From Acidobacteriota bacterium (GTDB lineage: Bacteria > Acidobacteriota > Thermoanaerobaculia > UBA5066 > Gp7-AA6), in NCBI GenBank assembly GCA_046725935.1, contig JBKOZO010000073.1:9341-73340 (forward strand): 64,000 nt of DNA. The letters run 5' to 3'. Below are positions 2,559 through 64,000 of the stretch, piece by piece. Below the pieces are notes generated by a model. That model did not search any database. It was given only the letters and a program-made list of their open reading frames with translations, and was not told the origin of the DNA. Position 1 is the first letter of the stretch; every line of letters begins with the position of its first letter. The translations under genes were made by a program, and so were the position numbers.

Positions 2559-3761
2559 ATGCCGAACTTCGTCTGGAAGGGAAGAAACCGCACGGGCCTC
2601 GTCCAGGAGGGCGTGCTCGTCGCGGACACCAAGGAGGGGGCGCTTCAGACCCTCCGCCGTCAGAACATCGTCGTCACCGGCATCCGGGAGCGCGGCAAGG
2701 AAATCTCGCTCACCAAGATGGGCCGCAAGGTCCCGGCCAAGGTCCTCGCGGTCTTTACCCGCCAGTTCTCGGTCATGATCGACGCCGGTCTTCCCCTGGT
2801 CCAGTGCCTCGAGATCCTGGCCAACCAGCAGGAGCACAAGAGCTTCGCAAAGATCCTCCTCCAGGTTCGCCAGGACGTCGAGGCCGGCTCGACCCTGGCC
2901 GACGCCATGCGCCGTCATCCGAAGGCGTTCGACGACCTCTACGTCAACATGGTCGCGGCCGGCGAGGCGGGCGGTATTCTGGACACGATCCTGCAGCGTC
3001 TCTCGACCTACATCGAGAAGGCCGTGAAGCTGCGTTCGCAGGTCCGGGCCGCTCTGATCTACCCGATTGCGGTCATCTGCATCGCGGCGATCGTCGTGGC
3101 GGTCATTCTGTTGAAGGTCATCCCGACCTTCGCCGCCCTGTTCACGAGCCTCGGGGCGGAGCTGCCGTTCCCGACTCGCGTGGTCATCGCGGCGTCCAAC
3201 TTCCTGGCTCGTTACTTCGTCTTCTTCGTCATCGGCATCGCCGCTGCGGTCTTCTTCTTCCGCCGGTACTACAAGACCTACCGCGGACGGCGCGTCATCG
3301 ACGGGGCGCTGCTGAAGGCGCCGATCATCGGCATCATCCTCCGCAAGATCGCGGTCGCCCGCTTCTGCCGTACGCTCGCCACGCTGACGTCCTCGGGCGT
3401 CCCGATCCTGGAGAGCCTCGACATCACCGCCCGCACGGCCGGCAACGCCATCGTCGAAGACGCCATCGTCGAGACGCGCAAGAGCGTCGAGAACGGCAAG
3501 ACGCTCGTGGAGCCCTTGCGGGACTCCGAGGTGTTCCCGAACATGGTCGTGCAGATGATCGGCGTCGGCGAGCAGACCGGCGCTCTGGACGCCATGCTGA
3601 ACAAGATCGCCGAGTTCTACGAGGACGAGGTCGACATCGCGGTCCAGGGCCTGGTCAAGCTGCTCGAGCCCGTGATGATCTTCATCCTCGGCGTCATCAT
3701 CGGAGGTATCGTCATCGCGATGTACCTGCCGATGTTCACGCTGATCAACAAGATCGGATAA
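2559..3761 (+). CDS. pilC: Type IV pilus inner-membrane platform protein PilC (GspF family)
   Basis: 400 aa with duplicated GspF-type domains and hydrophobic TM segments. It sits 6 nt after the pilT stop. Confidence 0.92.
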   Translation: MPNFVWKGRNRTGLVQEGVLVADTKEGALQTLRRQNIVVTGIRERGKEISLTKMGRKVPAKVLAVFTRQFSVMIDAGLPLVQCLEILANQQEHKSFAKILLQVRQDVEAGSTLADAMRRHPKAFDDLYVNMVAAGEAGGILDTILQRLSTYIEKAVKLRSQVRAALIYPIAVICIAAIVVAVILLKVIPTFAALFTSLGAELPFPTRVVIAASNFLARYFVFFVIGIAAAVFFFRRYYKTYRGRRVIDGALLKAPIIGIILRKIAVARFCRTLATLTSSGVPILESLDITARTAGNAIVEDAIVETRKSVENGKTLVEPLRDSEVFPNMVVQMIGVGEQTGALDAMLNKIAEFYEDEVDIAVQGLVKLLEPVMIFILGVIIGGIVIAMYLPMFTLINKIG

Positions 3762-7551: not shown

Positions 7552-9277
7552 ACGCCCGGCGGCTGCTCCCCTCCTGCCAGAACAGAGTCCCGTCCACTTC
7601 CTGGAGGTTGGACCATCCGCCGACGGGCTTGGACGAGGCGGCGTTCTGCATGAAGATCCCACCTCCCAGGAGCGCCTTCTTCTTCGTGGACCACGCGGCT
7701 CCGTCCCAGTAGGCGACGGAGCCGCCCGAGCGGACCTCGAGCACCGCTTCGCCGTTGCGGTCGGCGAGAAGCTCGGCCCCGCTCGCCGACCGAAGTCCTC
7801 CCGGAACGGATGCGAAGCGCGCTCCGTCGATGGTCGAGAAGACGCCCTCGGTCGTCACGAGCACGGGATGCTCGAAGGGCGCGCCGTAGAGCGCGATCGG
7901 CACGCCGGGGGGCGCTTCGCGCGGCGGGGACCAGCGGGCTCCGCCGTCCCGCGACACGCGCACGCCCTGCGCGCTCGCGACGAGCCAGACCGTGCGGCCG
8001 TCGGCGGCCCGGAAGGCGGCCAGCGAGGCCGAGGCCGGAAGCGGGTCGAGCGAGACCTTGCGGACCTCGCGGCCCGCGGCTTCCCACACGCCGCTCTCCT
8101 CGCCGGCGAACGCCCGGAAGAAGAGCACACGGTCGGGATTGGACGGATCGGCGACGAGCTCGGAGACGCGGCTCTCCGGCAGACCCCGCGATCCCGGCGT
8201 CAGCGTGCGCCCCCCGTCGTCCGACGTGAAGACTCCTTCCCCTTCGGTCCCGATGAAGAGACGTCCAGTGTGGCGATCCACCTCGAGCGCCGTGACGACG
8301 AGTGACTCGCGGGTGACGCGGGCCCACGTCTGGCCCCCGTCTTCGGAGCGGTGAAGCCCGCCCACGGTCGCCGCGTACACGACGCCCTCGCGGGTCGGAT
8401 CGCGGCGCACGGCGTGGGAGCGGCGATTCGTGAATCCGGTGGTGAAGCGCGTCCAGCGGTCGCCTCCGTCGCGCGTGCGATAGACCCAGCCGCACGTGGA
8501 TACCCAGATGTCGCGCGGGTCGGCGGAGGCGAAGTCCCACGCGTACACCGTGGCATCGAGGACCATGCCCTCGGCGATCCGCATCCAGCTCGAGCCGTCG
8601 TCGCGCGTCCGAAACGCCTGCCGCCAGGTGCCGGCATAGAGCGTGCGGCGGTCCGCCGGATCGAACGCCAGAGACTCGACCTGCTGCAGGCCGGCGACGC
8701 CCTGGCCGGTCTCGGCCCACGTCTGGCCGGCGTCTCGAGAGATCCGGACGCCGTCGTCGCCGCCGACGGCGAGCATCCGCGGCGAGCCCGGCGCGATCGC
8801 GAGCGCGCGCGTCGCGACGCTTCGCGAAGAGGTCAGCAGCGTCGTCCAGGTCGCGCCGCGGTCGTCGCTGCGGACGACGAGGCCTCCGGTCAGCTCCCCG
8901 GCGAGAGACGCCCAGAGTCTTCCGGGAACCGACGGGTCCGCCTGGAGACCGGTGACGTAGTAGCCGGGGAACGCGGGACCCGAAGCCAGCGGCTGCCAGG
9001 TCGCGCCGGCGTCTTTGGAGCCGTAGAAGTTTCCGCGCGAGGTTCCGCAGTAGACCGTGCCGGGCGCGAAGGGATCGAGGGCGAACGCGCGAATCTCAGC
9101 TCCCCAGAGCGGAAGGCGCCACCACGCGGCGGCGCGCGCCGCGTCCGCGGCGAGCACGCACGCCGCCGCCGCGAGGGCGAAGCCCCCGAGCCGGCGCCTC
9201 CATTGTTTCCGCACGCGGCTATTGTACGGGCTCTCCCGAAGAACGCAGTGACGAGGGATCCCGAGCTCGATTGCCAC
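7445..9277 (-). CDS. Secreted BNR/Asp-box repeat beta-propeller protein (sialidase/Ycf48-like fold)
   Basis: It has eight SxDxGxTW-type boxes: SKDAGATW, SDDRGATW, SRDAGQTW, TRDDGSSW, TRDGGDRW, SEDGGQTW, SDDGGRTL and SRDGGARW. A hydrophobic signal-like N-terminus is present. An alternative GTG start near 9214 is possible. Confidence 0.75.
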   Translation of the reverse strand: MAIELGIPRHCVLRESPYNSRVRKQWRRRLGGFALAAAACVLAADAARAAAWWRLPLWGAEIRAFALDPFAPGTVYCGTSRGNFYGSKDAGATWQPLASGPAFPGYYVTGLQADPSVPGRLWASLAGELTGGLVVRSDDRGATWTTLLTSSRSVATRALAIAPGSPRMLAVGGDDGVRISRDAGQTWAETGQGVAGLQQVESLAFDPADRRTLYAGTWRQAFRTRDDGSSWMRIAEGMVLDATVYAWDFASADPRDIWVSTCGWVYRTRDGGDRWTRFTTGFTNRRSHAVRRDPTREGVVYAATVGGLHRSEDGGQTWARVTRESLVVTALEVDRHTGRLFIGTEGEGVFTSDDGGRTLTPGSRGLPESRVSELVADPSNPDRVLFFRAFAGEESGVWEAAGREVRKVSLDPLPASASLAAFRAADGRTVWLVASAQGVRVSRDGGARWSPPREAPPGVPIALYGAPFEHPVLVTTEGVFSTIDGARFASVPGGLRSASGAELLADRNGEAVLEVRSGGSVAYWDGAAWSTKKKALLGGGIFMQNAASSKPVGGWSNLQEVDGTLFWQEGSSRRAFTSPRPSLPLAAAAEARGGRVYVGTMGDGLFLFEP

Positions 9278-53172: not shown

Positions 53173-54822
53173 TTGCTCCACTCCCGCAAAGCGTTGCTGA
53201 TCGTCGTCGCGGCGCTCGCGTCCGTGAGCTCAACCTGGCGCACGGGAGACGAGGTCGCATCGCTGCGCGACATCGTCTCGAGCGGGCACCTGGCCGATCT
53301 TCGCTGGCCCGACTTCTCCGATTACAAGGAGCATCTCGCCGCGTTCTACGAGCCGGCCGGCTACGCACCGGCGTGGCTCCAGGGCGGGCAGCCGACGCCG
53401 CAGGCTCTCGAGCTGATCCGGCAGTTCGAGGAGGCCTGGAAGAAAGGACTGGAGCCCGAAGACTACGACGCCTCGCGGTGGAACGCGCGCCTCGAGGCCC
53501 TGAAGGGACCCGGGGCGGACCCGGCCCGATTCGACGCGGCGATGAGCGTTTGCGCCATGCGTCTCGTGTCGGATCTTCGAATCGGACGCACCAACCCGCA
53601 GCATTTCCACTTCGGTCTGAGCGTCGAGGCGAAGAAGTACGACCTCGCGCGTTTCCTTCGCGAGCGGTTACTGACGTCGTCGGACATTCCTTCGCTCATC
53701 GACTCCGTCGAGCCGCCCTTCGGGGGCTATCGCCGGACCCGGGCCGCGCTCGTCCGCTACATCGAGCTCGCGCGGCGCGACGACTTCGAAAAGCTTCCGA
53801 CTCCGGCGAAACCCGTCGATCCCGGCAAGCCCTACGCCGGAGCGCCCCGGCTTCGCCGGCTCCTGACGCTCGTCGGCGATCTCCCGCCGGACGCGGCAGG
53901 GCCGGCCGATCTGCAGACCTACGACACGGCACTCGCGGAGGCGGTCAAGCGTTTTCAGCTCCGCCACGGCCTCGACGCCGACGGACGCCTCGGGCCCGGG
54001 ACCGTCCTGGAGCTCAACGTGCCGCTCTCGGACCGCGTGCGTCAGCTGCAGCTCGCGCTGGAACGCTGGCGCTGGCTGCCGGCCGAGTTCTCCGCGCCCC
54101 CGATCTTCGTCAACATCCCCGACTTTCGCCTGCGCACCGTCGGCGCCGACGGCCGGGTCGTCATGGACATGCCCGTCGTGGTCGGAAAGGCCATGCGGAC
54201 CGAGACGCCCGTCTTCTCGCGGGACATGATCTACGTCGTCTTCCGGCCTTACTGGAACGTTCCACCCAGCATTCTCCGCGCCGAGATCGTTCCCGCGATC
54301 CAGCGCGACCGCAATTACATCGCCCGGAAGGGATTCGAGATCACGACGCCCGACGGCCGGGTGGTCACCGACGGACCTGTTTCTGACGATGTCCTCGCAC
54401 AGCTCAAGGCGAGCAAGCTCGCTGTGCGTCAGAAGCCGGGAACAACCAATGCTCTCGGGCTCGTCAAGCTCATGTTCCCGAACGAGTACAACGTCTACCT
54501 GCACAGCACGCCGGCCCAGGAACTGTTTTCGAAGACCCGCCGCGACTTCAGCCACGGCTGCATCCGCGTGGAAAAGCCCGCGGAGCTCGCCGCGTGGGCG
54601 CTTCGCGACAATCCCGACTGGCCGCTCGAACGCGTCCAGTCCGCCATGCAGACGGGCCCGGACAACGTGACGGTCAAGCTCGTCCGCCCGATCCCGGTGT
54701 TCATCGTCTACGCGACGGCGTACGCCTACGAGAACGGCGAGGTCCACTTCTGGGACGACATCTACGGCCACGACGCCACGCTCGAGCAGGCGCTGGCCCA
54801 GGGCTATCCCTACCCCTGGTAG
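53173..54822 (+). CDS. L,D-transpeptidase (YcbB-like) with peptidoglycan-binding domain
   Basis: It has PG-binding AVKRFQLRHGLDADGRLGPGT and the YkuD catalytic region HSTP...FSHGCIRVE. It uses a non-ATG start. Confidence 0.88.
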   Translation: MLHSRKALLIVVAALASVSSTWRTGDEVASLRDIVSSGHLADLRWPDFSDYKEHLAAFYEPAGYAPAWLQGGQPTPQALELIRQFEEAWKKGLEPEDYDASRWNARLEALKGPGADPARFDAAMSVCAMRLVSDLRIGRTNPQHFHFGLSVEAKKYDLARFLRERLLTSSDIPSLIDSVEPPFGGYRRTRAALVRYIELARRDDFEKLPTPAKPVDPGKPYAGAPRLRRLLTLVGDLPPDAAGPADLQTYDTALAEAVKRFQLRHGLDADGRLGPGTVLELNVPLSDRVRQLQLALERWRWLPAEFSAPPIFVNIPDFRLRTVGADGRVVMDMPVVVGKAMRTETPVFSRDMIYVVFRPYWNVPPSILRAEIVPAIQRDRNYIARKGFEITTPDGRVVTDGPVSDDVLAQLKASKLAVRQKPGTTNALGLVKLMFPNEYNVYLHSTPAQELFSKTRRDFSHGCIRVEKPAELAAWALRDNPDWPLERVQSAMQTGPDNVTVKLVRPIPVFIVYATAYAYENGEVHFWDDIYGHDATLEQALAQGYPYPW

Positions 54823-54864
54823 ACGGTTCGGACGGCTAAGTTCGGTAGGCGTGACGCGACGCTT

Positions 54865-54891
54865 TTGGCAGAAGCGTGTGGGAGTCGAACC
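54865..54891. repeat. 27-nt direct repeat of the tRNA-Sec 3' end (distal att-like site)
   Basis: ttggcAgaagcgtgtgggagtcgaacc matches ttggcGgaagcgtgtgggagtcgaacc at 56828-56854 (26/27), in the same orientation. Confidence 0.85.
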
Positions 54892-55398
54892 TATTCCGAT
54901 TTGTAGGCTTTCTTAGGGAATTCGAGCACTTTGTCAGCGCCGGTGGCGGTCTTGCAGCGAACCGGAGCGAACCAATTGCGTTTCGCGAGACCTGTTGGCT
55001 AGCTCCTTCGCGACCAGGAGGCGAAAACTTGTTGAGGAGTCTCTACCAGGCCTTGAGTTGGGTCGACTGTCTCAAGACCGGTACCACAGATGGCATCTCG
55101 GCCCCGAGCAAGCCGTGGAAGCCCACCGTCGCGTGCGCGGCGCGGTCATGTTGCGGGTGCACTGGGGTCTCTTCGCCCTGGCGTCGCACGGCACGGCTGG
55201 ACCGAGCCGATCGAGCGAGTGCTCGTGGCGGCCCGCGACGCGGGTGCGGTGGTCATCTCTCCTCCGCCGGGGCAGAGCGTCGAGCCGACCGCGGAGAGGC
55301 CTCAGCAGCATTGGTGGCCGACACGGCCATGGCGCACCGGGGCGGAGAACCCGGTCGTCGCGCACCACGGGGACTGAGCCGCTCGCGTCGGCGGAAGA

Positions 55399-55977
55399 TC
55401 AGGTTCGCAGCGATCCAACGTGTCGATAACTGTTGATGAGCACGCCAGAGGACATGGCCTTCGTGCCGACGAGAGCGAGCTCGCGCGGGTCCGCACTGTC
55501 CGAAAAGAAGCGTTTGCCCAGGCCCAGCAAGACCGGGTAGACGAGCAGCAGAACCTCGTCGACCAGTCCCTGCTCGAGCAGCACGGACGTCAGCGTCGAA
55601 CTTCCCCAGAGGATCAGGTCAGGGCCGTCCTTCGACTTGACGCCGCGAATACCCTCCATGACGTCCGCGCCGAGGTTCCCGACCGGGCCCCATTCGAGGC
55701 TGTCCGGCCTGTGGGTCGCGACGTATTTCGTCGCAGCATTCAGACCGTTTGCTATCGGACTATTCCCGGCCTTCGGCCAGTAGCCGGACCAGAGATCGTA
55801 GGTGCGGCGGCCAAGCAGCAGATCGAAGTTGCTGCCCTGTGCCTCCATGACGGCCTCTAACCCAGCCGGGGTTCGATATGGCGCCGTCCATCCGCCGTTC
55901 GCGAAGTCTTCGCCCCGTCCGCCGGGCGATATCACGCCGTCCAGCGAGATGTGTTCCATGATTTTGATCTTTCTCAT
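55399..55977 (-). CDS. Dihydrofolate reductase-like (RibD C-terminal domain) family protein
   Basis: 192 aa starting MRKIKIMEHISLDGVI, with LLLGRRTYD and LILWGSSTL motifs. Confidence 0.85.
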   Translation of the reverse strand: MRKIKIMEHISLDGVISPGGRGEDFANGGWTAPYRTPAGLEAVMEAQGSNFDLLLGRRTYDLWSGYWPKAGNSPIANGLNAATKYVATHRPDSLEWGPVGNLGADVMEGIRGVKSKDGPDLILWGSSTLTSVLLEQGLVDEVLLLVYPVLLGLGKRFFSDSADPRELALVGTKAMSSGVLINSYRHVGSLRT

Positions 55978-56031
55978 TTTGCGTCTCCATCTGTCAGATG
56001 TTTTCTCCTCTCGCGTCCGACACCGAACAGC

Positions 56032-56481
56032 TCAGCTCCGCTTCGCCGCCTGCGCCGCGAGCTCGTCGTGCATCCTCCGCTCGCGCGCTACAGCCTCGTC
56101 AGTACGCACGTCGTCTGCCGGCAAGTCCGACATCTCGTAGACCTGCCGGATCTCGATCTCGGACACCTCGTCGTCGCCGAACGGGGCGGGGCAGCGCTTC
56201 ACCCACTCGATCGCTTCCTCTTTCGATTTGACCTGGATCAGCCAGAATCCGGCGACGAGCTCCTTGGTCTCCGCGAAGGGTCCGTCGATCACGGACCGTT
56301 TCCCGTGGTCGAAGCGGACGCGGGCGCCCTTGGAGCTCGGCTGGAGGCCCTCGGCGGCCAGCATCACGCCCGCCTTCACCATCTCCTCGTTGAACCGGCC
56401 CACCGCCTCAATGGCCTCCCACTTGGGCGGCGCGCCGGTCTCGGAATCCTTGTTCGCCTTGAGGATCACCATGAAACGCAT
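56032..56481 (-). CDS. YciI-family protein
   Basis: 149 aa with MRFMVILKAN...DGPFAETKELVAGFWLIQVKSKEEAIEW, typical of YciI/DGPF proteins. Confidence 0.85.
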   Translation of the reverse strand: MRFMVILKANKDSETGAPPKWEAIEAVGRFNEEMVKAGVMLAAEGLQPSSKGARVRFDHGKRSVIDGPFAETKELVAGFWLIQVKSKEEAIEWVKRCPAPFGDDEVSEIEIRQVYEMSDLPADDVRTDEAVARERRMHDELAAQAAKRS

Positions 56482-56828
56482 TGCAGACTCCTTTCGTTCT
56501 CCGTGAGAACCGGGTCACCGGGACGTCCGCCGGTCCGAAATCCCGCTCTCTGACAGAACGACGAACGATACCGGCCGAAATCGACAACCGGCGATCAGGA
56601 TTTTCTCGCGCCGGCAAGGAGGACAGCGATGATCAAATATCCCAACGGGGGCATCGAGCCCTTCTCATCGTCGGGTTTTCTTGGCGTCGGCAGACAAGGC
56701 CGCGCGCGTTCAGCGGGACTGTCAGCGAACCACCCGCCTCCGGTCGCCATTTCTGGGTTTCCAACTGCAGTCGGAAACGAGAGAGCGCCCGATTTCTCAG
56801 GCGCTTGCCTGGCGGCAGGGAGCGGGGT

Positions 56829-56927
56829 TGGCGGAAGCGTGTGGGAGTCGAACCCACCCGTCCCGGCGTTCGCCGCGACGCCGACGGATTTGAAGTCCGC
56901 GGGGGTCACCGGACCCCGTGCGCCTCC
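56829..56927 (-). tRNA. selC: tRNA-Sec (selenocysteine, anticodon UCA)
   Basis: The 99-nt reverse-strand sequence is GGAGGCGCACGGGGTCCGGTGACCCCCGCGGACTTCAAATCCGTCGGCGTCGCGGCGAACGCCGGGACGGGTGGGTTCGACTCCCACACGCTTCCGCCA. It has a 6-bp D-stem with a 4-nt loop, anticodon loop CTTCAAA, a long variable arm, T-loop GGTTCGACTCC and an encoded CCA. It closely parallels E. coli selC. Confidence 0.87.
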
Positions 56928-56973
56928 GGAACCGGATTATTAACCGGATCCTGCCCGCCGGCGGAGGCGCCGC

Positions 56974-57627
56974 CTAGCGGTTCGCGACCGTCTCGGTAGA
57001 AACGCCGGGCTCGAAGCGGCGGAATACGAGCGCGACCAGGCCGAGCCGGATGGAATCGCCGTCGCGGAGAGGGTGACTGCCTTCGAGCCGGTGATTGCGC
57101 AGGAACGTTCCGTTCTTGCTGCCGAGGTCCTCGAGGCGCGCGGCCGTCCCGTCGATGACGATGCGTGCGTGGTGGCGGGACACGGATGCGTGGTCCACCG
57201 GAATGTCCGCGTCGGGGTCGCGGCCGAGCACGTACGTCCCTTCCGCGAGGGCAATTTCGCGTTCTCCCCACACGAGGGCGTAGAGCGACGGCGGCGCGGG
57301 GACGGCTGCCTTTGCGCCGCTTTCGACGACTTCGCCGTGGAAGGCGTAACCGAAGCGGGGCACCGTGCGCACGAATCGAGGCGCGTTCGCGTCGTCTCCG
57401 ATCACTTCGCGCAGCTCGGCCACGAGACGGGCGAGGTTGCCTTCGGCCACGAAAACCCCCGGCCAGAGGGCTTCCATCAGGTTGTCTTTGGAAACGGCGG
57501 CGGGCCGCTGCGCAAGGAGCAGCTCCAGCAGGCGAAAGACCTTGGGCGGAACGTGAACAACCGCGCCGCGGCGCGACAGCTCACGTGTCCGGCCGTCGAA
57601 GACGCAATCCCCGAAGGAAACGGTCAT
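56974..57627 (-). CDS. Transcriptional regulator: N-terminal OmpR/CadC-type winged helix fused to a C-terminal FHA domain
   Basis: The wHTH region reads LSRRGAVVHVPPKVFRLLELLLAQRPAAVSKDNLMEALW...VRTVPRFGYAF. The FHA region reads LGRDPDADIPVDHASVSRHHARI...LEDLGSKNGTFLRN. This is a mini-EmbR-like layout without the BTAD domain. Confidence 0.8.
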   Translation of the reverse strand: MTVSFGDCVFDGRTRELSRRGAVVHVPPKVFRLLELLLAQRPAAVSKDNLMEALWPGVFVAEGNLARLVAELREVIGDDANAPRFVRTVPRFGYAFHGEVVESGAKAAVPAPPSLYALVWGEREIALAEGTYVLGRDPDADIPVDHASVSRHHARIVIDGTAARLEDLGSKNGTFLRNHRLEGSHPLRDGDSIRLGLVALVFRRFEPGVSTETVANR

Positions 57628-57650
57628 CGCGTCGACGAATTGTACTTCCG

Positions 57651-57718
57651 GCGCGAAAACGAAGCGAAAGCGAAGGGGAAACGAAAGACGCGCGACGCCG
57701 TCTCGCTGGATCGTCTAC
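57651..57718 (+). promoter_or_regulatory. Purine-rich conserved leader/upstream element, copy A (shared with 59641-59708)
   Basis: The sequence is gcgcGAAAAcGAAgcGAAAgcGAAggggAAAcGAAAGACGCGCgacgccGTCTcGCTGGATCgtctac. The blocks CGCGAAAA, CGAAAGACGCGC and CGCTGGATC recur upstream of the paralog. Confidence 0.5.
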
Positions 57719-57758
57719 CTGTCGGCCCCGGTCGACCCCGGCGGCCGGAGGAGGCCAC

Positions 57759-59630
57759 ATGGTTCCCAGGATTTCCCGCTTATCCTTCATCCTCCCCTTC
57801 GCGCTTCTCGGCGTTCTGCTGGCCGCGCCGGCGACGCTCCGGGCGGGTCAGAACAGCTGGACCGGAAGCCGGCCCAGAGAGGCCCGAACCGATTACGCCA
57901 ATCTGATCGCCGCGGTCCCGAGCAATCCCTATGTCGTTTTCGCGGTCTTCGAGCCAGATCTGTACAAGAGCAACGACGGGGGACGCACCTGGACAAGAGT
58001 CGCCTCGTTTACCTGGATCCACTCTCTCCTGGTTCATCCCGCGGACGCCACGATCTACGTCGGCGCCGCCCTCCTCGACGGCGCGCTGGCCACCGTCTTT
58101 CGAAGCGACGACTCCGGCGCGACGTGGACGCAGCTCACGATGGCCGGGTCAACCGATGTCTTCGTCGACACGTTGGCCGGCGCTCCGAGCGACGCCGGCA
58201 CCGTTTACGCGGGCTCGGTAGACGGCTGGGTCTACCAGACGAGGGATGCGGGGGCGACTTGGACGAGAGGCCCGAATCTCGCCAATATCATTTCCGAGCT
58301 CGTGGTCCACCCAACGGAACCACAGGTCGTCTACACCGGCACGGACGCAAGCTACTACTATTTCTTCGGAGAGGCCTCCATCGAAAAATCGGTTGACGGA
58401 GGAGTGCACTGGTCCAACCTGAATCCAGGAGACTTCGGCTCCGTGACCGCACTCGCGATCGATACGTCCTCAAGGCTCTACATGAACGTCGAGTCGGACG
58501 CCGGCCCCCCTACCGAGTTGCGCGGTCTGCTTCGTTCCGACGATGACGGCTCCAACTGGACACAGGTGGGCAGAGGGCTTCCGACCGACATCTACGTGAG
58601 CAGCCTCGTTACCGATCCGCATGCCCCGGGCACCCTATACGCCGGGACTTCGTCCGGCGTCTATCGCAGCCGTGACTCGGGAGAGAACTGGACACGGGTC
58701 GGCCTCCTGCTGTCGAGCGTCTTTTCGCTCCAGCTCGACGACACCGGCCGTTTTCTCCAGGCGGGCACGGACGCCGGGGCCTACGCCCTCGAGATCATCC
58801 GCGGTCCGATCGACCTTGCCGCGAGAGGTTCCGATACGCCGACGCTGTTCTTCGATTCGGATCGGCTCACGATTCGCACGATGGACGACGGCGGCGACTG
58901 GCGGGGCACCTCCTCCGACGATCCTTCGACGACCTGGACGGCCACGGCGATCGCCGCCGGAGCGGACGGGCTCACGCGCGTTCTGTGGCAGTGCGCTGAC
59001 GGCCGATGGGGAATCGAGATAGTCGGTCCGTCGGGACGGCAGGCCGTGCACGTCTTTTCGATCACGAGCAGCCTCGCGCCGGTGGATGTCGCCGTGGGGG
59101 CCGATGGCGCGGCCCGGGTCCTTTTCTCTAACGGCGTGGGAGTCATGCAGATTGCGAGCGTGGACTCCTCCGGCGCGCTCCACGCGGGCATCGTGTACGG
59201 GCCGGCTCCAGGCTGGACGGCGGTGTCCATCGCGGACGGTCCCGGCGGGAACCGTGTGCTCTGGCGGTGCACCGACGGGCGCGGCGGCATTTCGCTCCAC
59301 GACACGGAAGGCGCGATGACGGGATCTTCCAAGTGGGTGGCGAGCGCGGGATTCCTGGCCGAGGACCTGGCCGTGGGAGCGGACGGGCATGCGCGACTGC
59401 TCCGCACGAACGCCGGCGGAGTCGCCGAGGTTTCGACACTCGACGCTGCGGGTCAGCCGACGGCGGCACAGACCTTCACCAGTCTCGGATTCACGCCCCG
59501 CCGCATCGCGGCCGGCGCCGACGGTACGACGAGACTGCTCTGGAACGCGGCCGACGGCACGGGCCAGATCTGGATCCTCAACTTGGACAACACGGAGCGT
59601 TCCCGGATCGAAACACCCACGGGGCCATAG
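57759..59630 (+). CDS. Secreted two-propeller protein, paralog 1: BNR/Asp-box propeller plus a C-terminal array of six ~46-aa repeats
   Basis: 623 aa with SD GGAGGAGG and a signal peptide. It has 6 Asp-boxes (SNDGGRTW, SDDSGATW, TRDAGATW, SVDGGVHW, SDDDGSNW, SRDSGENW). The C-terminal repeats follow the pattern (I/V)AxGADGxxR(V/L)LWxxxDGxGxI. Confidence 0.8.
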   Translation: MVPRISRLSFILPFALLGVLLAAPATLRAGQNSWTGSRPREARTDYANLIAAVPSNPYVVFAVFEPDLYKSNDGGRTWTRVASFTWIHSLLVHPADATIYVGAALLDGALATVFRSDDSGATWTQLTMAGSTDVFVDTLAGAPSDAGTVYAGSVDGWVYQTRDAGATWTRGPNLANIISELVVHPTEPQVVYTGTDASYYYFFGEASIEKSVDGGVHWSNLNPGDFGSVTALAIDTSSRLYMNVESDAGPPTELRGLLRSDDDGSNWTQVGRGLPTDIYVSSLVTDPHAPGTLYAGTSSGVYRSRDSGENWTRVGLLLSSVFSLQLDDTGRFLQAGTDAGAYALEIIRGPIDLAARGSDTPTLFFDSDRLTIRTMDDGGDWRGTSSDDPSTTWTATAIAAGADGLTRVLWQCADGRWGIEIVGPSGRQAVHVFSITSSLAPVDVAVGADGAARVLFSNGVGVMQIASVDSSGALHAGIVYGPAPGWTAVSIADGPGGNRVLWRCTDGRGGISLHDTEGAMTGSSKWVASAGFLAEDLAVGADGHARLLRTNAGGVAEVSTLDAAGQPTAAQTFTSLGFTPRRIAAGADGTTRLLWNAADGTGQIWILNLDNTERSRIETPTGP

Positions 59631-59640
59631 CCTCGGTTTC

Positions 59641-59708
59641 CGCGAAAAGCGAATCCAAAACGAAGTAGAAGCGAAAGACGCGCTCGGTCTTCCCGCTGGA
59701 TCTTCACG
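59641..59708 (+). promoter_or_regulatory. Purine-rich conserved leader/upstream element, copy B
   Basis: The sequence is cgcGAAAAgcGAAtccAAAAcGAAgtaGAAgcGAAAGACGCGCtcgGTCTtcccGCTGGATCttcac. Confidence 0.5.
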
Positions 59709-59743
59709 TTGCGGGCGCCGCTGTTACGGTGCCGGGAGGCAAC

Positions 59744-61615
59744 ATGATCGAGAAGAGCGCGCATCGGTGGTGCATCGGATTTCTGGCGAGCGTTCTCATT
59801 CTGCTGATCGCACCGGCCGCCGCCCGCGCGGATCAGAACACCTTCACAGGCTCCGGCGTCGTCGGCTCCGGGGCAGGCGCCGACCACATCGCCGCCGATC
59901 CGTCGAACCCCTACATCGTGTATGCGGTGTTCCAGCCGGCCCTCTATCGCAGCGATGACGGGGGCAGGACCTGGACGCTTCTGAAGGGAGGGTTCGACAC
60001 CATACACGCCCTGCTCGTCCATCCGGCCGAGCCGACGACGATTTACATCAGCGCCTCCGATGGCAACGGGCAGTCTGTCGTCTACAAGAGCACGGACCGC
60101 GGCCAGACCTTCGCCAAGCTTTTTCTGTCCCCACTTTCCTTCGACTACGTCCTGGTCCTGGCCGGAGATCCTTCGGATGCCTCCACGGTGTACGCGGGAA
60201 CCGTCTTCGGAATGTTCTATAAATCGAGTGACGGGGGCGCGACCTGGGCGACGGGCCAGAGCTTGAGCGGCGCCGTCGCTCAGCTCGTGATCGATCCGAG
60301 CGACCGCAGGAACGTCTACGCCGGCACGGAAGCCGACTTCTACTACTTCACCTTCGGGCAGTTCGAGAAGAGCACGGACTCGGGAACGACCTTCACCTCC
60401 CACAGCCCGGGACCGTTTCAGACCGTCACCGCGCTGGCGATCGATCCCCATTTGCCGTCGAAGCTCTACATGGGCGTGGATTCCGCTGAATACCTGCGAG
60501 GCCTCTTCACCTCGAACGACGGCGGGACGAGCTGGCTTCCATCCGGGGCTGGGCTCCCGGGCGCACCGGTATCCGGCATCGTGACCGACCCGAACGCTCT
60601 GGCGATCGTTTACGCCGGCACGCGCGAGGGAGTCTTCCGCAGCTTGGACGCGGGAGCGACCTGGGCACCGTTCGGCTCACGACTGGGACTCTCGGTCAAC
60701 TCGTTGACGATGAGTGGAGACGGGCGGTTCCTGCACGCGGGAACGGATCAGGGAGCATTCGACCTGGAGATCGTTCGGGGCCCGATCGACGTCGCGGGCG
60801 GCGCGTCGGGCGACAGCCAACTTCTACTCTGGATCGATAACCAGCTCTTTTTCGGCTCGCTCGACGCGTCCGGAGGGTGGTCGGGGGCACCCCCCAGCGC
60901 CACGTCAACGACCTGGACCCCCACGGCAATCGCGCGGGAACCCGACGGAAGCCCGCGGATCCTGTGGCAGTGCAACGACGGCCGCTGGGGGTTGCAGAGC
61001 TTCGGACCACTGGTCAGCGAATCCGTGGTGTTCCCGCAGGGGAGCGTGGCTCCGGCAGACATCGCGGCTGCGTCCGATGGGCAGACCTGGATCCTCTTCA
61101 CCGGCGTCACGGGCCAGATGTTCGTCGTCAAGACAGACTCCTCGGGGACGCCGACGTTCCACCAGGCGTACGGCCCGGCGGCGGGCTGGAGCGCGGTCGC
61201 GATCGCGGACAGTTCCGAGGGCGCCTGGGTCCTGTGGCGCTGTACCGACGGCCGCGCGGGTCTCTCTCTTCACGACGCAGGCGGCGTCATGCTCCGCTCC
61301 CTTCAGTGGCCAGCGGGGCCCGGTCTCGCGGCCGAGGACATCACGGTCGGCGCCGACGGACGCGCGCGCCTCCTGCGCGCAAGCGCAAACGGACATATGG
61401 AGATATCGACCGTCGACGCGGCGGGTCAGCTGACCGCCGGTCAGAGCTACGACAACTCGGGGTTCGCGGCGCGCCGAATCTCCGCGGGCTCGGACGGCCT
61501 GACGCGGGTCCTCTGGAATGCGCCGGACGGCAGCGGCAGTGTGTGGCTGTTCAAGGCGGACAACACGCCCAGCGCCAAGCACGACACTCCAACGGACCTG
61601 AGCGGGTCTGACTGA
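59744..61615 (+). CDS. Secreted two-propeller protein, paralog 2
   Basis: It is also 623 aa, with SD GGGAGG. The architecture is the same and roughly half the residues are identical to paralog 1 by eye. Its Asp-boxes are SDDGGRTW, STDRGQTF, SSDGGATW, STDSGTTF, SNDGGTSW and SLDAGATW. Confidence 0.8.
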   Translation: MIEKSAHRWCIGFLASVLILLIAPAAARADQNTFTGSGVVGSGAGADHIAADPSNPYIVYAVFQPALYRSDDGGRTWTLLKGGFDTIHALLVHPAEPTTIYISASDGNGQSVVYKSTDRGQTFAKLFLSPLSFDYVLVLAGDPSDASTVYAGTVFGMFYKSSDGGATWATGQSLSGAVAQLVIDPSDRRNVYAGTEADFYYFTFGQFEKSTDSGTTFTSHSPGPFQTVTALAIDPHLPSKLYMGVDSAEYLRGLFTSNDGGTSWLPSGAGLPGAPVSGIVTDPNALAIVYAGTREGVFRSLDAGATWAPFGSRLGLSVNSLTMSGDGRFLHAGTDQGAFDLEIVRGPIDVAGGASGDSQLLLWIDNQLFFGSLDASGGWSGAPPSATSTTWTPTAIAREPDGSPRILWQCNDGRWGLQSFGPLVSESVVFPQGSVAPADIAAASDGQTWILFTGVTGQMFVVKTDSSGTPTFHQAYGPAAGWSAVAIADSSEGAWVLWRCTDGRAGLSLHDAGGVMLRSLQWPAGPGLAAEDITVGADGRARLLRASANGHMEISTVDAAGQLTAGQSYDNSGFAARRISAGSDGLTRVLWNAPDGSGSVWLFKADNTPSAKHDTPTDLSGSD

Positions 61616-61666
61616 CAACGACGTCGGCTGCGGCGCCGGGCGGGGACCCTCGCCGGCGTCGTCTGT

Positions 61667-63199
61667 CTACGAGCCCGTTCGCACCCCGCCGGCACGCAAC
61701 AGGAAGCGCTGGAGCTTGCCGGTCGCGGTGCGGGGCAGCTCGGGCACGAAAGTGATCCACCTCGGGCACTTGTAGCCCTCGATGCGCTCGCGGGCGAACG
61801 ACCGCAGCGCGTCGGCGAGACCCTCGGAAGCGGCGCCGTCGCGCACCACGACGAAGGCGTGCGCCTTGACCAGGCGATCGTCGTCCGTCTGGCCGATCAC
61901 CGCGCACTCGAGGACCGCCGGATGCGCGGACAGCGCGGACTCCACCTCGACCGGAGAGACCCAGATGCCGCCGACCTTGAGCATGTCGTCGCTGCGTCCG
62001 GCGTGCCAGTAATAGCCGTCGGCGTCGCGCCGATACTTGTCGCCTGTCCGGATCCAGTCGCCCTCGAGCGCGCGCTTCGTGGCCTCGTGCTTGTTCCAGT
62101 AGAACGCCATAGTGGAGTCGCCGCGCACGAGAAGATCCCCGATCTCGCCCGCCGGGACCTCGCTCCCGTCCTCTCGCGCCAGGCGGACGTCGTAGCCCGG
62201 AATGACGGTGCCGCTCGAGCCCGCCCGCGCCGCGCCGGCGCGATTGGAGAGAAAGCAGTGGCAGACCTCGGTCGAACCGATGCCGTCGAGGATCTCCAGG
62301 CCCGTCGCCTCGCGCCAGCGTTCGAAGAGGATCGGCGGCAGGGACTCCCCCGCGCTGAAACAGGCGCGCACGCTCGAGAAGTCGGCCTTCGCGCCCTTCT
62401 CGATCGCAGCGAGCATGTTGGCGTACGCCGTGGGCACGCCGAAGAAGAGCGTCGGCCGGTGGCGGCGCACCTGGGCGAAGACCGCGTCGGGGGTCGGACG
62501 CCCGGCGAACAGGACGCCGGCCGCGCCCGCGTCGTACGGAAGGTACTGCGCGTTGCCCAGGCCGTACGCGAAGAAGAGCTTCGCGACCGAGAAGCAGCGG
62601 TCCTCCGCGCGCATGCGGAGCACCGCGTCGCCGTAGGTGCGGCTGCAGATCCACATGTCGTGCTGCAGATGGACGACGCCCTTGGGCTCCCCCGTCGTGC
62701 CGCTCGAGTACAGCATGAAGGCGAAGCCGTCGCGGTGGGTCGCGGCGTAGTCCGCCGGATCGGCTTCCGCGAGAAGGGTCGCGGTCTCCGATACCCTCCA
62801 CGTGGCGCAATGGGCGGGCGCGATGGCGTATCCGTCGGCCAGGCCGGGGTCGAAGACCAGCAGGCGCGGTTCGCAGTCGGCGAGGATGGAACGCAGATGC
62901 ACGGCCTTGAGGCTCGGGTTCAGCGGCGTCGCGACGGCGCCCGCGGCGATGGCGCCCCAGAAGGCGATCGAGAAGAGCGGACCGTCGGAAAGGATCAGGG
63001 AGACCCGGTCGCCGGAATGGAGTCCTTCCTCCCGAAGCACGCCGGCGAAGCGGCGCACCTCCAGATCCAGCTCCGCGTAGGTCGTCTCGCCTTCGTCGCT
63101 GACGATCGCGACGCGGCCGCCGCGGCCTTCGGCGGCATGGCGGCCGACGAACCAGGAGGCCGCGTTGAACCGCTCGGGCAGGTAATCCGCGGCGCGCAT
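61667..63199 (-). CDS. AMP-dependent aryl-CoA ligase (benzoate/4-hydroxybenzoate-CoA ligase family)
   Basis: 510 aa with the AMP-binding motif MLYSSGTTGEPKGV and GDKYRRDADGYYWHAGRSDDMLKVGGIWVSP. Confidence 0.85.
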   Translation of the reverse strand: MRAADYLPERFNAASWFVGRHAAEGRGGRVAIVSDEGETTYAELDLEVRRFAGVLREEGLHSGDRVSLILSDGPLFSIAFWGAIAAGAVATPLNPSLKAVHLRSILADCEPRLLVFDPGLADGYAIAPAHCATWRVSETATLLAEADPADYAATHRDGFAFMLYSSGTTGEPKGVVHLQHDMWICSRTYGDAVLRMRAEDRCFSVAKLFFAYGLGNAQYLPYDAGAAGVLFAGRPTPDAVFAQVRRHRPTLFFGVPTAYANMLAAIEKGAKADFSSVRACFSAGESLPPILFERWREATGLEILDGIGSTEVCHCFLSNRAGAARAGSSGTVIPGYDVRLAREDGSEVPAGEIGDLLVRGDSTMAFYWNKHEATKRALEGDWIRTGDKYRRDADGYYWHAGRSDDMLKVGGIWVSPVEVESALSAHPAVLECAVIGQTDDDRLVKAHAFVVVRDGAASEGLADALRSFARERIEGYKCPRWITFVPELPRTATGKLQRFLLRAGGVRTGS

Positions 63200-63218
63200 C
63201 GACTTACTCCGGCCGCGA

Positions 63219-64000
63219 CTACCCCTTGACGCAGACGACCTGTTTGAGGCGAGAGACGATCTCGACTAGGTCCGAGGAATTCTCGATGACCTCGCCGATC
63301 GGCTTGTAGGCCCCCGGGATCTCGTCGAGCACGCCCGCGTCCTTGCGGCACTCGACGCCCTCGGTCTGCGCCGCGAGGTCCTCCTTGGTGAACGTCCGGC
63401 GCGCGGCTCCGCGGCTCATCTTGCGGCCGGCGCCGTGGGGAGCGCTCTCGAAGGACTCGGGGTTGCCGAGCCCGCGCACGATGAAGCTGCCCGTTCCCAT
63501 CGAGCCGGGAATGATTCCGAGATCGCCCCGCCGCGCCCGAATCGCGCCCTTGCGCGTGACGGTCACTTCCTCTCCGAAGTGGGTCTCCCACGCGACGTAG
63601 TTGTGGTGGCAGTTGATCGTGGGCTCCCGCGCGAAGTCGCCGGCCACGTGACGGAGATCCTTCAGGACATCCTCCAGCATGATCTGACGGTTGACGAACC
63701 CGAACTCCTGGCACCACTTCAGGTCCTCGACGTACGCGTCGAACTCCCGGCTCCCTTCCGTGAAGTAGGCCAGATCCGAATCCGGCAGCTCGACGGACAG
63801 ATTCTTGAGGATCTTCTTCGCCTTGCCGATGTGCTTTTCGGCGGTGACCTTTCCGATGTTGCGTGATCCGGAGTGGAGCAGGACCCAGACCTTGGCATCG
63901 TCCTGATCGACGCAGATCTCGATGAAGTGGTTGCCGCCGCCGAGCGTGCCGCATTGGTGCGCGGCCTTCTGGATCTCGCCGTCAGAGGCGACCGACGGCC
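63219..64000 (-). CDS. rtcB: RNA-splicing ligase RtcB, C-terminal part (5' end outside window)
   Basis: The frame is open to the window edge. Motifs GTLGGGNHFIE, LHSGSRNIG and PHGAGRKMSR are present, and the protein ends in VCVKG. Confidence 0.92.
   Translation of the reverse strand, partial: PSVASDGEIQKAAHQCGTLGGGNHFIEICVDQDDAKVWVLLHSGSRNIGKVTAEKHIGKAKKILKNLSVELPDSDLAYFTEGSREFDAYVEDLKWCQEFGFVNRQIMLEDVLKDLRHVAGDFAREPTINCHHNYVAWETHFGEEVTVTRKGAIRARRGDLGIIPGSMGTGSFIVRGLGNPESFESAPHGAGRKMSRGAARRTFTKEDLAAQTEGVECRKDAGVLDEIPGAYKPIGEVIENSSDLVEIVSRLKQVVCVKG

Follow-up and report, generated by a model that had tools for sequence, protein, structure and literature searches.

The response regulators OmpR and PhoB bind in tandem, head-to-tail, to direct repeats spaced by a helical turn, which lie upstream of a weak -35 element or replace it. 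In Mycobacterium tuberculosis, EmbR couples an OmpR-type winged helix to an FHA domain, and embR is paired with pknH, the gene of its kinase. The OmpR-type domains of the SARP regulators bind direct repeats that are spaced by 11 or 22 bp and adjoin or overlap the -35 element (PMC10936776). Here we describe a locus in a 64,000-nt stretch of DNA from an Acidobacteriota bacterium, probably Thermoanaerobaculia-like (the window, by which the whole stretch is meant) that appears to combine these features. Three genes spanning 56974-61615 encode a small protein with an OmpR/CadC-type winged helix and an FHA domain and, divergently from it, two tandem secreted paralogs. With moderate confidence we propose that the small protein is a kinase-controlled, EmbR-like activator without the BTAD domain, which drives the promoters of both paralogs through the direct repeats upstream of them.

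The regulator, which we read as a one-component-style transcription factor, shares with EmbR the coupling of an OmpR-type winged helix to an FHA domain, and the FHA domain of EmbR was its best sequence match in the PDB (2fez, 1e-11). A Hanks-type kinase gene beside the regulator gene is a further likeness, which holds here for the wider family only, as the window regulator has no adjacent kinase. It differs from EmbR in its size (217 aa compared with 388 aa) and its lack of BTAD, and from EmbR and the SARP proteins in the number of repeats (three or four here, two there) and in the phylum (Acidobacteriota here, Actinomycetota there). The repeat spacing and the position relative to the -35 element match the sequence geometry of the SARP/AfsR family, the binding here being predicted. 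With OmpR and PhoB the regulator has the Trans_reg_C DNA-binding domain in common, but it has no receiver domain and no histidine kinase, and its input would be phosphothreonine read by the FHA domain instead of aspartyl phosphate. Because BTAD and the receiver domain are both missing, it fails the defining features of the EmbR/SARP and of the OmpR/PhoB families. GarA and OdhI, which were strong matches of the FHA domain, are likewise small FHA proteins; the conserved Thr-containing tail of the present protein could be phosphorylated and then bound by an FHA domain. In GarA and OdhI, however, the phospho-motif lies at the N-terminus and serves to inhibit enzymes, whereas here the partner is a DNA-binding domain. 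No paper on the Trans_reg_C plus FHA architecture, in Acidobacteria or elsewhere, was found in the literature searched.

Both domains of the regulator scored above their Pfam cutoffs (Table 1), which confirms the fusion that the original prediction had read from the sequence. BTAD gave no match at E<=0.1, and there is no room for it because only about 35 residues separate the winged helix from the FHA domain. Response_reg was not matched either, and the winged helix begins already at residue 23. The phosphothreonine-binding residues of the FHA domain, G135-R136, S150-R151-x-H153 and N172-G173-T174, were invariant in 43 diverse homologs. The EmbR-like logic without BTAD that had been predicted is therefore in keeping with the protein. 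In the short C-terminal tail Thr211 was also invariant in the 43 homologs, and S210 was found in at least 90% of them.

The upstream regions of the two paralogs each contain a three-fold direct repeat of 11 bp with the consensus nnnGAAAnCGA. At lag 11 the region before paralog 1 gave an autocorrelation of 0.62 (p=0.0004) and that before paralog 2 one of 0.47 (p=0.017), and in both copies the hexamer AAGACG begins right after the third repeat unit. When the two regions were aligned they were 75% identical over 75 columns, compared with 48.5 +/- 3.1% and a maximum of 60% for shuffled sequences. The coding DNA of the paralogs had an overall identity of 59%, which fell to 47% at third codon positions, and its best 68-nt window reached 73.5%. 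The high identity upstream against the low identity at third positions shows that the duplication is old and that the upstream block is under selection. There is a 1-nt register offset between the two copies, and patterns taken from the register of one leader matched that leader only.

A syntenic ortholog of the locus, L094 (regulator 92% identical, DNA 80% identical over 1,517 nt), was included in a three-way alignment with the two window copies. The repeats, AAGACG, CGCTGGATC and the Shine-Dalgarno sequence were invariant, and the spacer between the -35-like and -10-like hexamers and the 5' untranslated region (5'UTR) were variable. Copy 2 keeps all these blocks although no regulator gene lies beside it, from which it follows that they act on the gene downstream. 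It had originally been proposed that about 68 nt of GAAA/CGAA direct repeats were conserved upstream of both genes as a regulatory leader copied with the gene. The conservation and the copying hold and extend to the ortholog, and the repeats could be refined to the three-fold 11-bp unit. The copied element, however, is most likely an untranscribed operator and promoter and not an RNA leader.

A scan for the sigma-70 consensus between 56400 and 62000 gave no promoter; the proposed hexamers are too weak for that scan. On the plus strand no terminator was predicted between the paralogs, so that paralog 2 may also receive read-through transcription. Two terminator-like matches on the minus strand, 57699-57687 and 59693-59673, are the reverse complement of the spacer palindrome and the purine tract. 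They were rejected because their T-runs are interrupted and copy 2 has no upstream minus-strand gene.

Table 1. Features of the regulator-paralog locus (positions in the window; promoter elements, operators and hairpins are predictions)
Feature	Position	Strand	Description
Regulator gene	56974..57627	-	217 aa; OmpR/CadC-type winged helix and FHA domain; Pfam Trans_reg_C 8e-14, FHA 3e-22
Winged-helix DNA-binding domain, residues 23-96	57340..57561	-	Trans_reg_C (PF00486), 51.9 bits, cutoff 26.2
Recognition-helix region, about residues 61-75			Reads AEGNLARLVAELREV; helix class co-varies with operator class
FHA domain, residues 132-196	57040..57234	-	PF00498, 79.1 bits, cutoff 20.7
Thr211 codon, C-terminal tail of regulator	56995..56997	-	Candidate phospho-acceptor, judged by its invariance
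tRNA-Sec gene	56829-56927	-	Anticodon TCA; Rfam 67.6 bits; directly after the regulator stop codon
Predicted operator 1	57652..57684	+	Three in-phase 11-bp direct repeats, CGCGAAAACGA, AGCGAAAGCGA, AGGGGAAACGA; in phase with the layout of the family
-35-like box, paralog 1	57685..57690	+	AAGACG; also starts the degenerate fourth repeat unit
-10-like hexamer, paralog 1	57709..57714	+	GATCGT, 18 nt after the -35-like box; predicted transcription start near 57721
Predicted 5'UTR hairpin, paralog 1	57723..57748	+	Just upstream of the Shine-Dalgarno sequence GGAGGAGG (57747-57754)
Paralog 1	57759..59630	+	623 aa; signal peptide residues 1-29; BNR and W-rich propellers
Paralog 1, BNR/Sortilin-type propeller, about residues 45-345	57891-58793		
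Paralog 1, W-rich six-bladed propeller, about residues 347-618	58797-59612		
Predicted operator 2	59642..59674	+	GCGAAAAGCGA, ATCCAAAACGA, AGTAGAAGCGA; aligned with operator 1 and L094
-35-like box, paralog 2	59675..59680	+	AAGACG
-10-like hexamer, paralog 2	59699..59704	+	GATCTT, 18 nt after the box; predicted transcription start near 59711
Predicted 5'UTR hairpin, paralog 2	59714..59733	+	GGCGCCG-CTGTTA-CGGTGCC, upstream of the Shine-Dalgarno sequence GGGAGG
Paralog 2	59744..61615	+	623 aa; architecture as paralog 1
Paralog 2, BNR propeller	about 59873-60772		
Paralog 2, W-rich propeller	about 60776-61594		

The regulator family was searched with a profile built from five regulators. More than 7,800 proteins were retrieved, almost all of about 218 aa and with the same two domains; the few named members come from metagenome-assembled genomes of Thermoanaerobaculia. 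For the comparison of gene neighbourhoods 93 related loci were used, 80 found via the regulator and 13 via the C-terminal domain of the paralogs (the C-domain). In 34 of the 69 loci with enough sequence, the regulator is followed on its own strand by a Hanks-type kinase gene that starts within 250 nt, and in 3-4 further loci the kinase is the divergent neighbour. The kinases encoded just downstream of the regulators, in L003, L005, L006, L015, L021, L023, L027, L031, L034, L045, L076 and other loci, measure about 850 aa; their Pkinase domain is N-terminal, and after it comes a long PD40/WD40-like region, presumably an extracytoplasmic propeller sensor. Regulator, kinase and many of the targets would therefore all be linked to propeller proteins. 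The Ser/Thr-kinase input that the original prediction had implied is thus supported by the gene order in the wider family.

The C-domain alone led to eight Acidobacteriota loci, and in six of these the regulator gene lies upstream of BNR plus C-domain genes in divergent orientation; none of the five Armatimonadota loci found in this way has the regulator. In the metagenome set BNR/Sortilin proteins were the commonest divergent neighbours of the regulators. Others were TonB-dependent-type outer-membrane proteins, PAP2 and vanadium-chloroperoxidase-like proteins, cupins, Vgb-lyase-like and PD40 propellers, an M13 peptidase and kinases. A signal peptide or lipobox stands at the start of the neighbour proteins that were inspected. 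Within the metagenome set, only L070 has a target containing both the BNR propeller and the C-domain.

The promoter geometry recurs across the family, beside many of about 90 related regulators, and the combination of regulator, kinase and promoter arrangement is repeated in many soil Acidobacteria. Averaged over 81 regions adjacent to regulators, the autocorrelation peaked at lags 11 and 22 only in the segment beside the regulator gene. The box [AG][ACG]GAC[TG][CT] was found 40-49 nt from the regulator ATG in 25 of about 70 regions, compared with 1-8 per other 10-nt bin. The hexamer [CGT][AT]TC[TGC]T followed 17-18 nt after the box in 13 of 36 loci, whereas shuffled sequences gave 0.57 +/- 0.76.

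The sequence of the repeat unit varies between lineages together with the recognition helix. Units of the GGAAAAACC type go with the helix SDGTLTSLLAEVR, units of the AGGAAAAGCC/AGCGAA type with SDANLPNLVAELR and AACGAAnCGGG-type units with SERSLARL. The purine CGAA/GAAG-type units go with (A)(E/D)GNLARLVAELRE in the window and in L015, L017 and L024, with L019 being similar. All six promoters of this purine class have A(A/C)GACn, 18 nt and GATC(G/C/T)T, despite unrelated target genes. As the operator class tracks the recognition-helix class and the targets are unrelated, the cis-element follows the regulator and not the target. A GAA-density scan of the first 13 related loci had found no literal purine-rich tract, but the reading that the leader is not conserved was dropped, since the loci share the 11-bp-repeat architecture with lineage-specific unit sequences. 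The periodicity across the family, the fixed distance to the -35-like box and the co-variation with the helix are consistent with the GAAA repeats being the target of the regulator, which had been suggested as plausible.

In a subclass of regulators (L040, L056, L061, L070 and L077), with the helix SDG(A/T)LTSLLVEVRN and the wing LYVRTVHRFGYAF, the intergenic layout is different. A GATTATCGCGCA element lies near the regulator ATG, and the repeat/ACGACT block is farther off and near the target. In L005 (2694-3120) the interval from the regulator to the first BNR gene contains a small open reading frame with an operator-like repeat block on either side of it, at about 2700-2740 and 3003-3040. 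The first two BNR plus C-domain paralogs of L005 overlap and are thus operonic, unlike the window paralogs with one promoter each.

The proposed activation mechanism builds on the domain content and fold of the proteins, the duplication, the conserved cis-blocks, the promoter geometry of the family and the kinase synteny. Regulator molecules would bind head-to-tail on the three 11-bp repeats at about -69 to -37, and perhaps on a fourth, degenerate unit over the -35 element. The bound regulator would activate a weak sigma-70-type promoter in the manner of OmpR, PhoB and the SARP proteins, and a Ser/Thr kinase would set its activity through the phosphothreonine read by the FHA domain. The ancient tandem duplication copied the operator and promoter along with the gene, and each paralog would therefore have its own regulated promoter. 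Transcription starting near 57721 and 59711 would leave 5'UTRs of about 35 nt, with the hairpin first and the Shine-Dalgarno sequence last.

Several points weigh against this mechanism. The binding of the regulator to the repeats, activation in place of repression, and the control of binding by phosphorylation, possibly of Thr211 and read by the FHA domain of a neighbouring molecule, are inferences. The -35 and -10 assignments depend on weak hexamers in a genome of 66% G+C, and the starts are predictions only. Common descent of closely related loci could explain part of the co-variation of helix and operator. In most of the family, the distance from the start codon of the regulator itself to the repeats is about 13 nt. 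When four kinases from related loci were used for tBLASTn, no kinase was found in the 64 kb of the window, as had been noticed before. The tRNA-Sec gene occupies the usual position of the kinase, and it does so also in L094 (2009-2107). Because of this arrangement in both loci and the lack of a kinase in 64 kb, the lineage is regarded as "orphan" and its kinase must be encoded elsewhere, so that phospho-control in this lineage is assumed. On the side of the target proteins, GH74 enzymes were among the best Foldseek matches of the full-length paralog model, and at a TM-score (template modelling score) of about 0.40 and 14-17% identity the similarity is topological only.

Just downstream of the tRNA-Sec gene the minus strand has a terminator-like hairpin at 56784-56805, with 9 pairs and CTCTCGTTTC after them.

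The position of the repeats near the start codon of the regulator makes autoregulation or repression also plausible. The regulator could then act on the repeats mainly as a repressor or autoregulator and the paralogs would be derepressed, not activated. In most family members the repeat block lies within the upstream or leader region of the regulator gene itself, and on that strand good -10-like hexamers (GATAAT, TAAGAT) can be read beyond the repeats in many loci. Copy 2, however, has no divergent regulator, and yet the spacing between its repeats and the -35-like box is unchanged. The repeats are upstream of this box and cover neither the -35 nor the -10 of the target, and the target hexamers are weak, as would be expected of activator-dependent promoters. 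We therefore regard repression as the main role of the repeats as unlikely, although a repressor or autoregulator function may coexist with activation.

An effect after initiation, in which the conserved purine-rich region is transcribed as an RNA leader (a riboswitch, an attenuator or a protein-binding GAAA-repeat RNA), is improbable. It is true that the region is rich in GAAA and immediately precedes both genes, that a hairpin-plus-run motif can be detected, but on the opposite strand only, and that a small hairpin with differing stem sequences recurs before the Shine-Dalgarno sequence in three leaders. The Rfam scan of 54000-64000 at E<=1, however, gave only the tRNA-Sec. Folding of the whole leaders gave z-scores of -0.30 and 0.01 and two predicted structures that differ. 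Moreover, the conserved blocks fit the -35, 18 nt, -10 geometry that is common to promoters of unrelated targets, and the 11-bp phasing of the repeats is that of the DNA helix. The region 57712-57758 with the 5'UTR hairpin of paralog 1 folded with z=-2.19. A GC-rich hairpin of this kind precedes the Shine-Dalgarno sequence in all three BNR-gene leaders, and in L094 (reverse strand, about 1195-1216) it is GCTGCCGG-TTGATC-CCGGCAGC. A 5'-terminal stem-loop with a stabilising or translational role is possible, judged from these three sequences only.

Gene conversion can occur between tandem paralogs, and a purine-rich tract is of low complexity, but it is highly improbable that the upstream similarity is a recent local conversion or a chance likeness without function, since the synonymous sites are saturated (47% identity at third positions, 59% overall, in the flanking coding DNA), the shuffled sequences reach 48.5 +/- 3.1% against the 75% observed, and the blocks are kept in L094 and the architecture in L015, L017, L019 and L024 with different targets.

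The preferred reading, activation of both promoters by the regulator, has as its targets two secreted proteins that are 49% identical over 610 aa. Both start with a signal peptide, read from the sequence as a basic n-region, a hydrophobic core and a cleavage site LRA|G or ARA|D. Six Asp-boxes follow, at about residues 71, 116, 161, 211, 260 and 304 of paralog 1 and 70, 116, 161, 210, 257 and 300 of paralog 2, and then the six-fold repeats, as the original prediction had it. The Sortilin-Vps10 family (PF15902) was matched with 56.6 and 53.4 bits (cutoff 33), and the NCBIfam model NF045728 (F510_1955 family glycosylhydrolase) with 114.4 and 109.4 bits, under its cutoff of 175. The closest solved relative by sequence was PDB 3b7f, a structural-genomics entry named "glycosyl hydrolase, BNR repeat", which matched the N-terminal half with 5e-15.

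The full-length model showed two packed propellers with a pLDDT (predicted local distance difference test) of 88.8 and a pTM (predicted TM-score) of 0.88, residues 1-29 being the sole low-confidence part. The N-terminal half had about 27 strands, which fits seven blades better than six. The six Asp-boxes of each protein are thus confirmed, but the corresponding propeller is probably seven-bladed and not six-bladed as first described. GH74 xyloglucanases and the BNR/Sortilin-Vps10 tandem-propeller proteins are also secreted, with two consecutive propellers and Asp-boxes in the first. In GH74 the two seven-bladed BNR propellers form a cleft with a catalytic Asp pair. In the paralogs the second propeller is six-bladed and not of the BNR type, and no catalytic residues were identifiable.

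A third BNR/Sortilin-like gene lies in the window at about 7826-9112 on the minus strand. Its product is about 30% identical to the N-terminal propeller of the paralogs, and it has no detectable C-terminal W-rich propeller and no operator copy. Large tandem arrays occur outside the window. The Acidobacteriota locus L002 has a row of at least four genes with BNR and/or C-domain, some of which encode two BNR propellers, and L013 of the Capsulimonadaceae contains the C-domain at least six times within 12.8 kb, where no regulator is close by.

The C-terminal half of each paralog consists of six units of about 46 aa with a mean mutual identity of 26%. Residues 335-623 gave no match to Pfam or NCBIfam, even at E<=10, and sequence and profile searches of the PDB found no solved relative. 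The AlphaFold2 model of the domain, made with 21 homologs, was all-beta with a pLDDT of 91.1 and a pTM of 0.90, and its 23 strands fit six four-stranded blades. Foldseek against the PDB returned generic propellers only, mostly seven-bladed WD40 proteins, with TM-scores of 0.5-0.66 and root mean square deviations above 5 A; a lectin-type six-bladed match was not among them. The second six-bladed propeller, which the original prediction could not assign to a family, is accordingly a confident beta-propeller in the model and falls outside the curated families searched.

A word-indexed search gave 20 relatives of the C-domain. The profile search of 1.84 billion cluster representatives retrieved 14,072 proteins at E<=1e-3, of which 992 were still matched at E<=1e-30. 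The profile also spans about 95 positions before the domain, and in the 150 matches listed the best stretch was within the C-domain. By these searches the family is large and uncurated, and not rare. Some homologs, among them P0011 (26.8 bits) and P0014 (30.7 bits), came close to or exceeded the cutoff of 26.2 bits of Pfam PF07483 (W_rich_C) over one or two repeats; the window paralogs themselves gave no match to it at E<=10. This link adds only a name, because PF07483 has no assigned function or structure, and nothing relevant on W_rich_C was found in the literature searched.

The C-domain is fused to sedolisin pro-domains, trypsin, cyclophilin, cupin, FMN-reductase and fn3, and also to PKD, Calx-beta, BACON, RCC1 and BNR propellers. 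At least 22 cluster representatives have the full architecture of about 620-640 aa, a BNR propeller and then the C-domain. Since it is carried by proteases, a cyclophilin, cupins and adhesin-type proteins, the second propeller is most likely an extracellular ligand- or glycan-binding module. The domain partners further suggest that the whole paralog is a secreted glycan- or ligand-binding protein and possibly a hydrolase.

A wider proposal, which is tentative and rather doubtful as a whole, concerns the class of the winged-helix-FHA proteins of about 218 aa. These would be a very abundant and hitherto uncharacterised Acidobacteriota type of Ser/Thr-kinase-dependent transcription switch. The cognate membrane kinase with its PD40-type propeller sensor would phosphorylate Thr211, and the FHA domain of the next protomer would bind the phosphothreonine. 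This would give a head-to-tail oligomer that corresponds to the likewise head-to-tail 11-bp repeats, and phospho-dependent, cooperative arrays of this kind would recruit RNA polymerase to the weak promoters from which secreted proteins are expressed. The lineage of the window would have lost the kinase gene from the operon, with the regulator wired to a kinase in trans.

Taken together, the regulator is a minimal FHA-coupled OmpR-type regulator that is abundant in Acidobacteriota and has a defined candidate operator; it is not categorically new. The C-domain family, with thousands of cluster representatives at 50% identity and no curated model, is found on secreted proteases, adhesin-like and BNR proteins and merits a family definition. 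Acidobacteriota are among the most abundant soil bacteria, and gene regulation in them is almost unstudied. The locus offers a compact and very common type of regulator for which an operator and a promoter geometry can be predicted and a partner kinase and target genes named. If the proposed activation holds, the logic of EmbR and PknH, from Ser/Thr kinase via FHA to OmpR-type DNA binding, would extend to a minimal form without BTAD and to another phylum.

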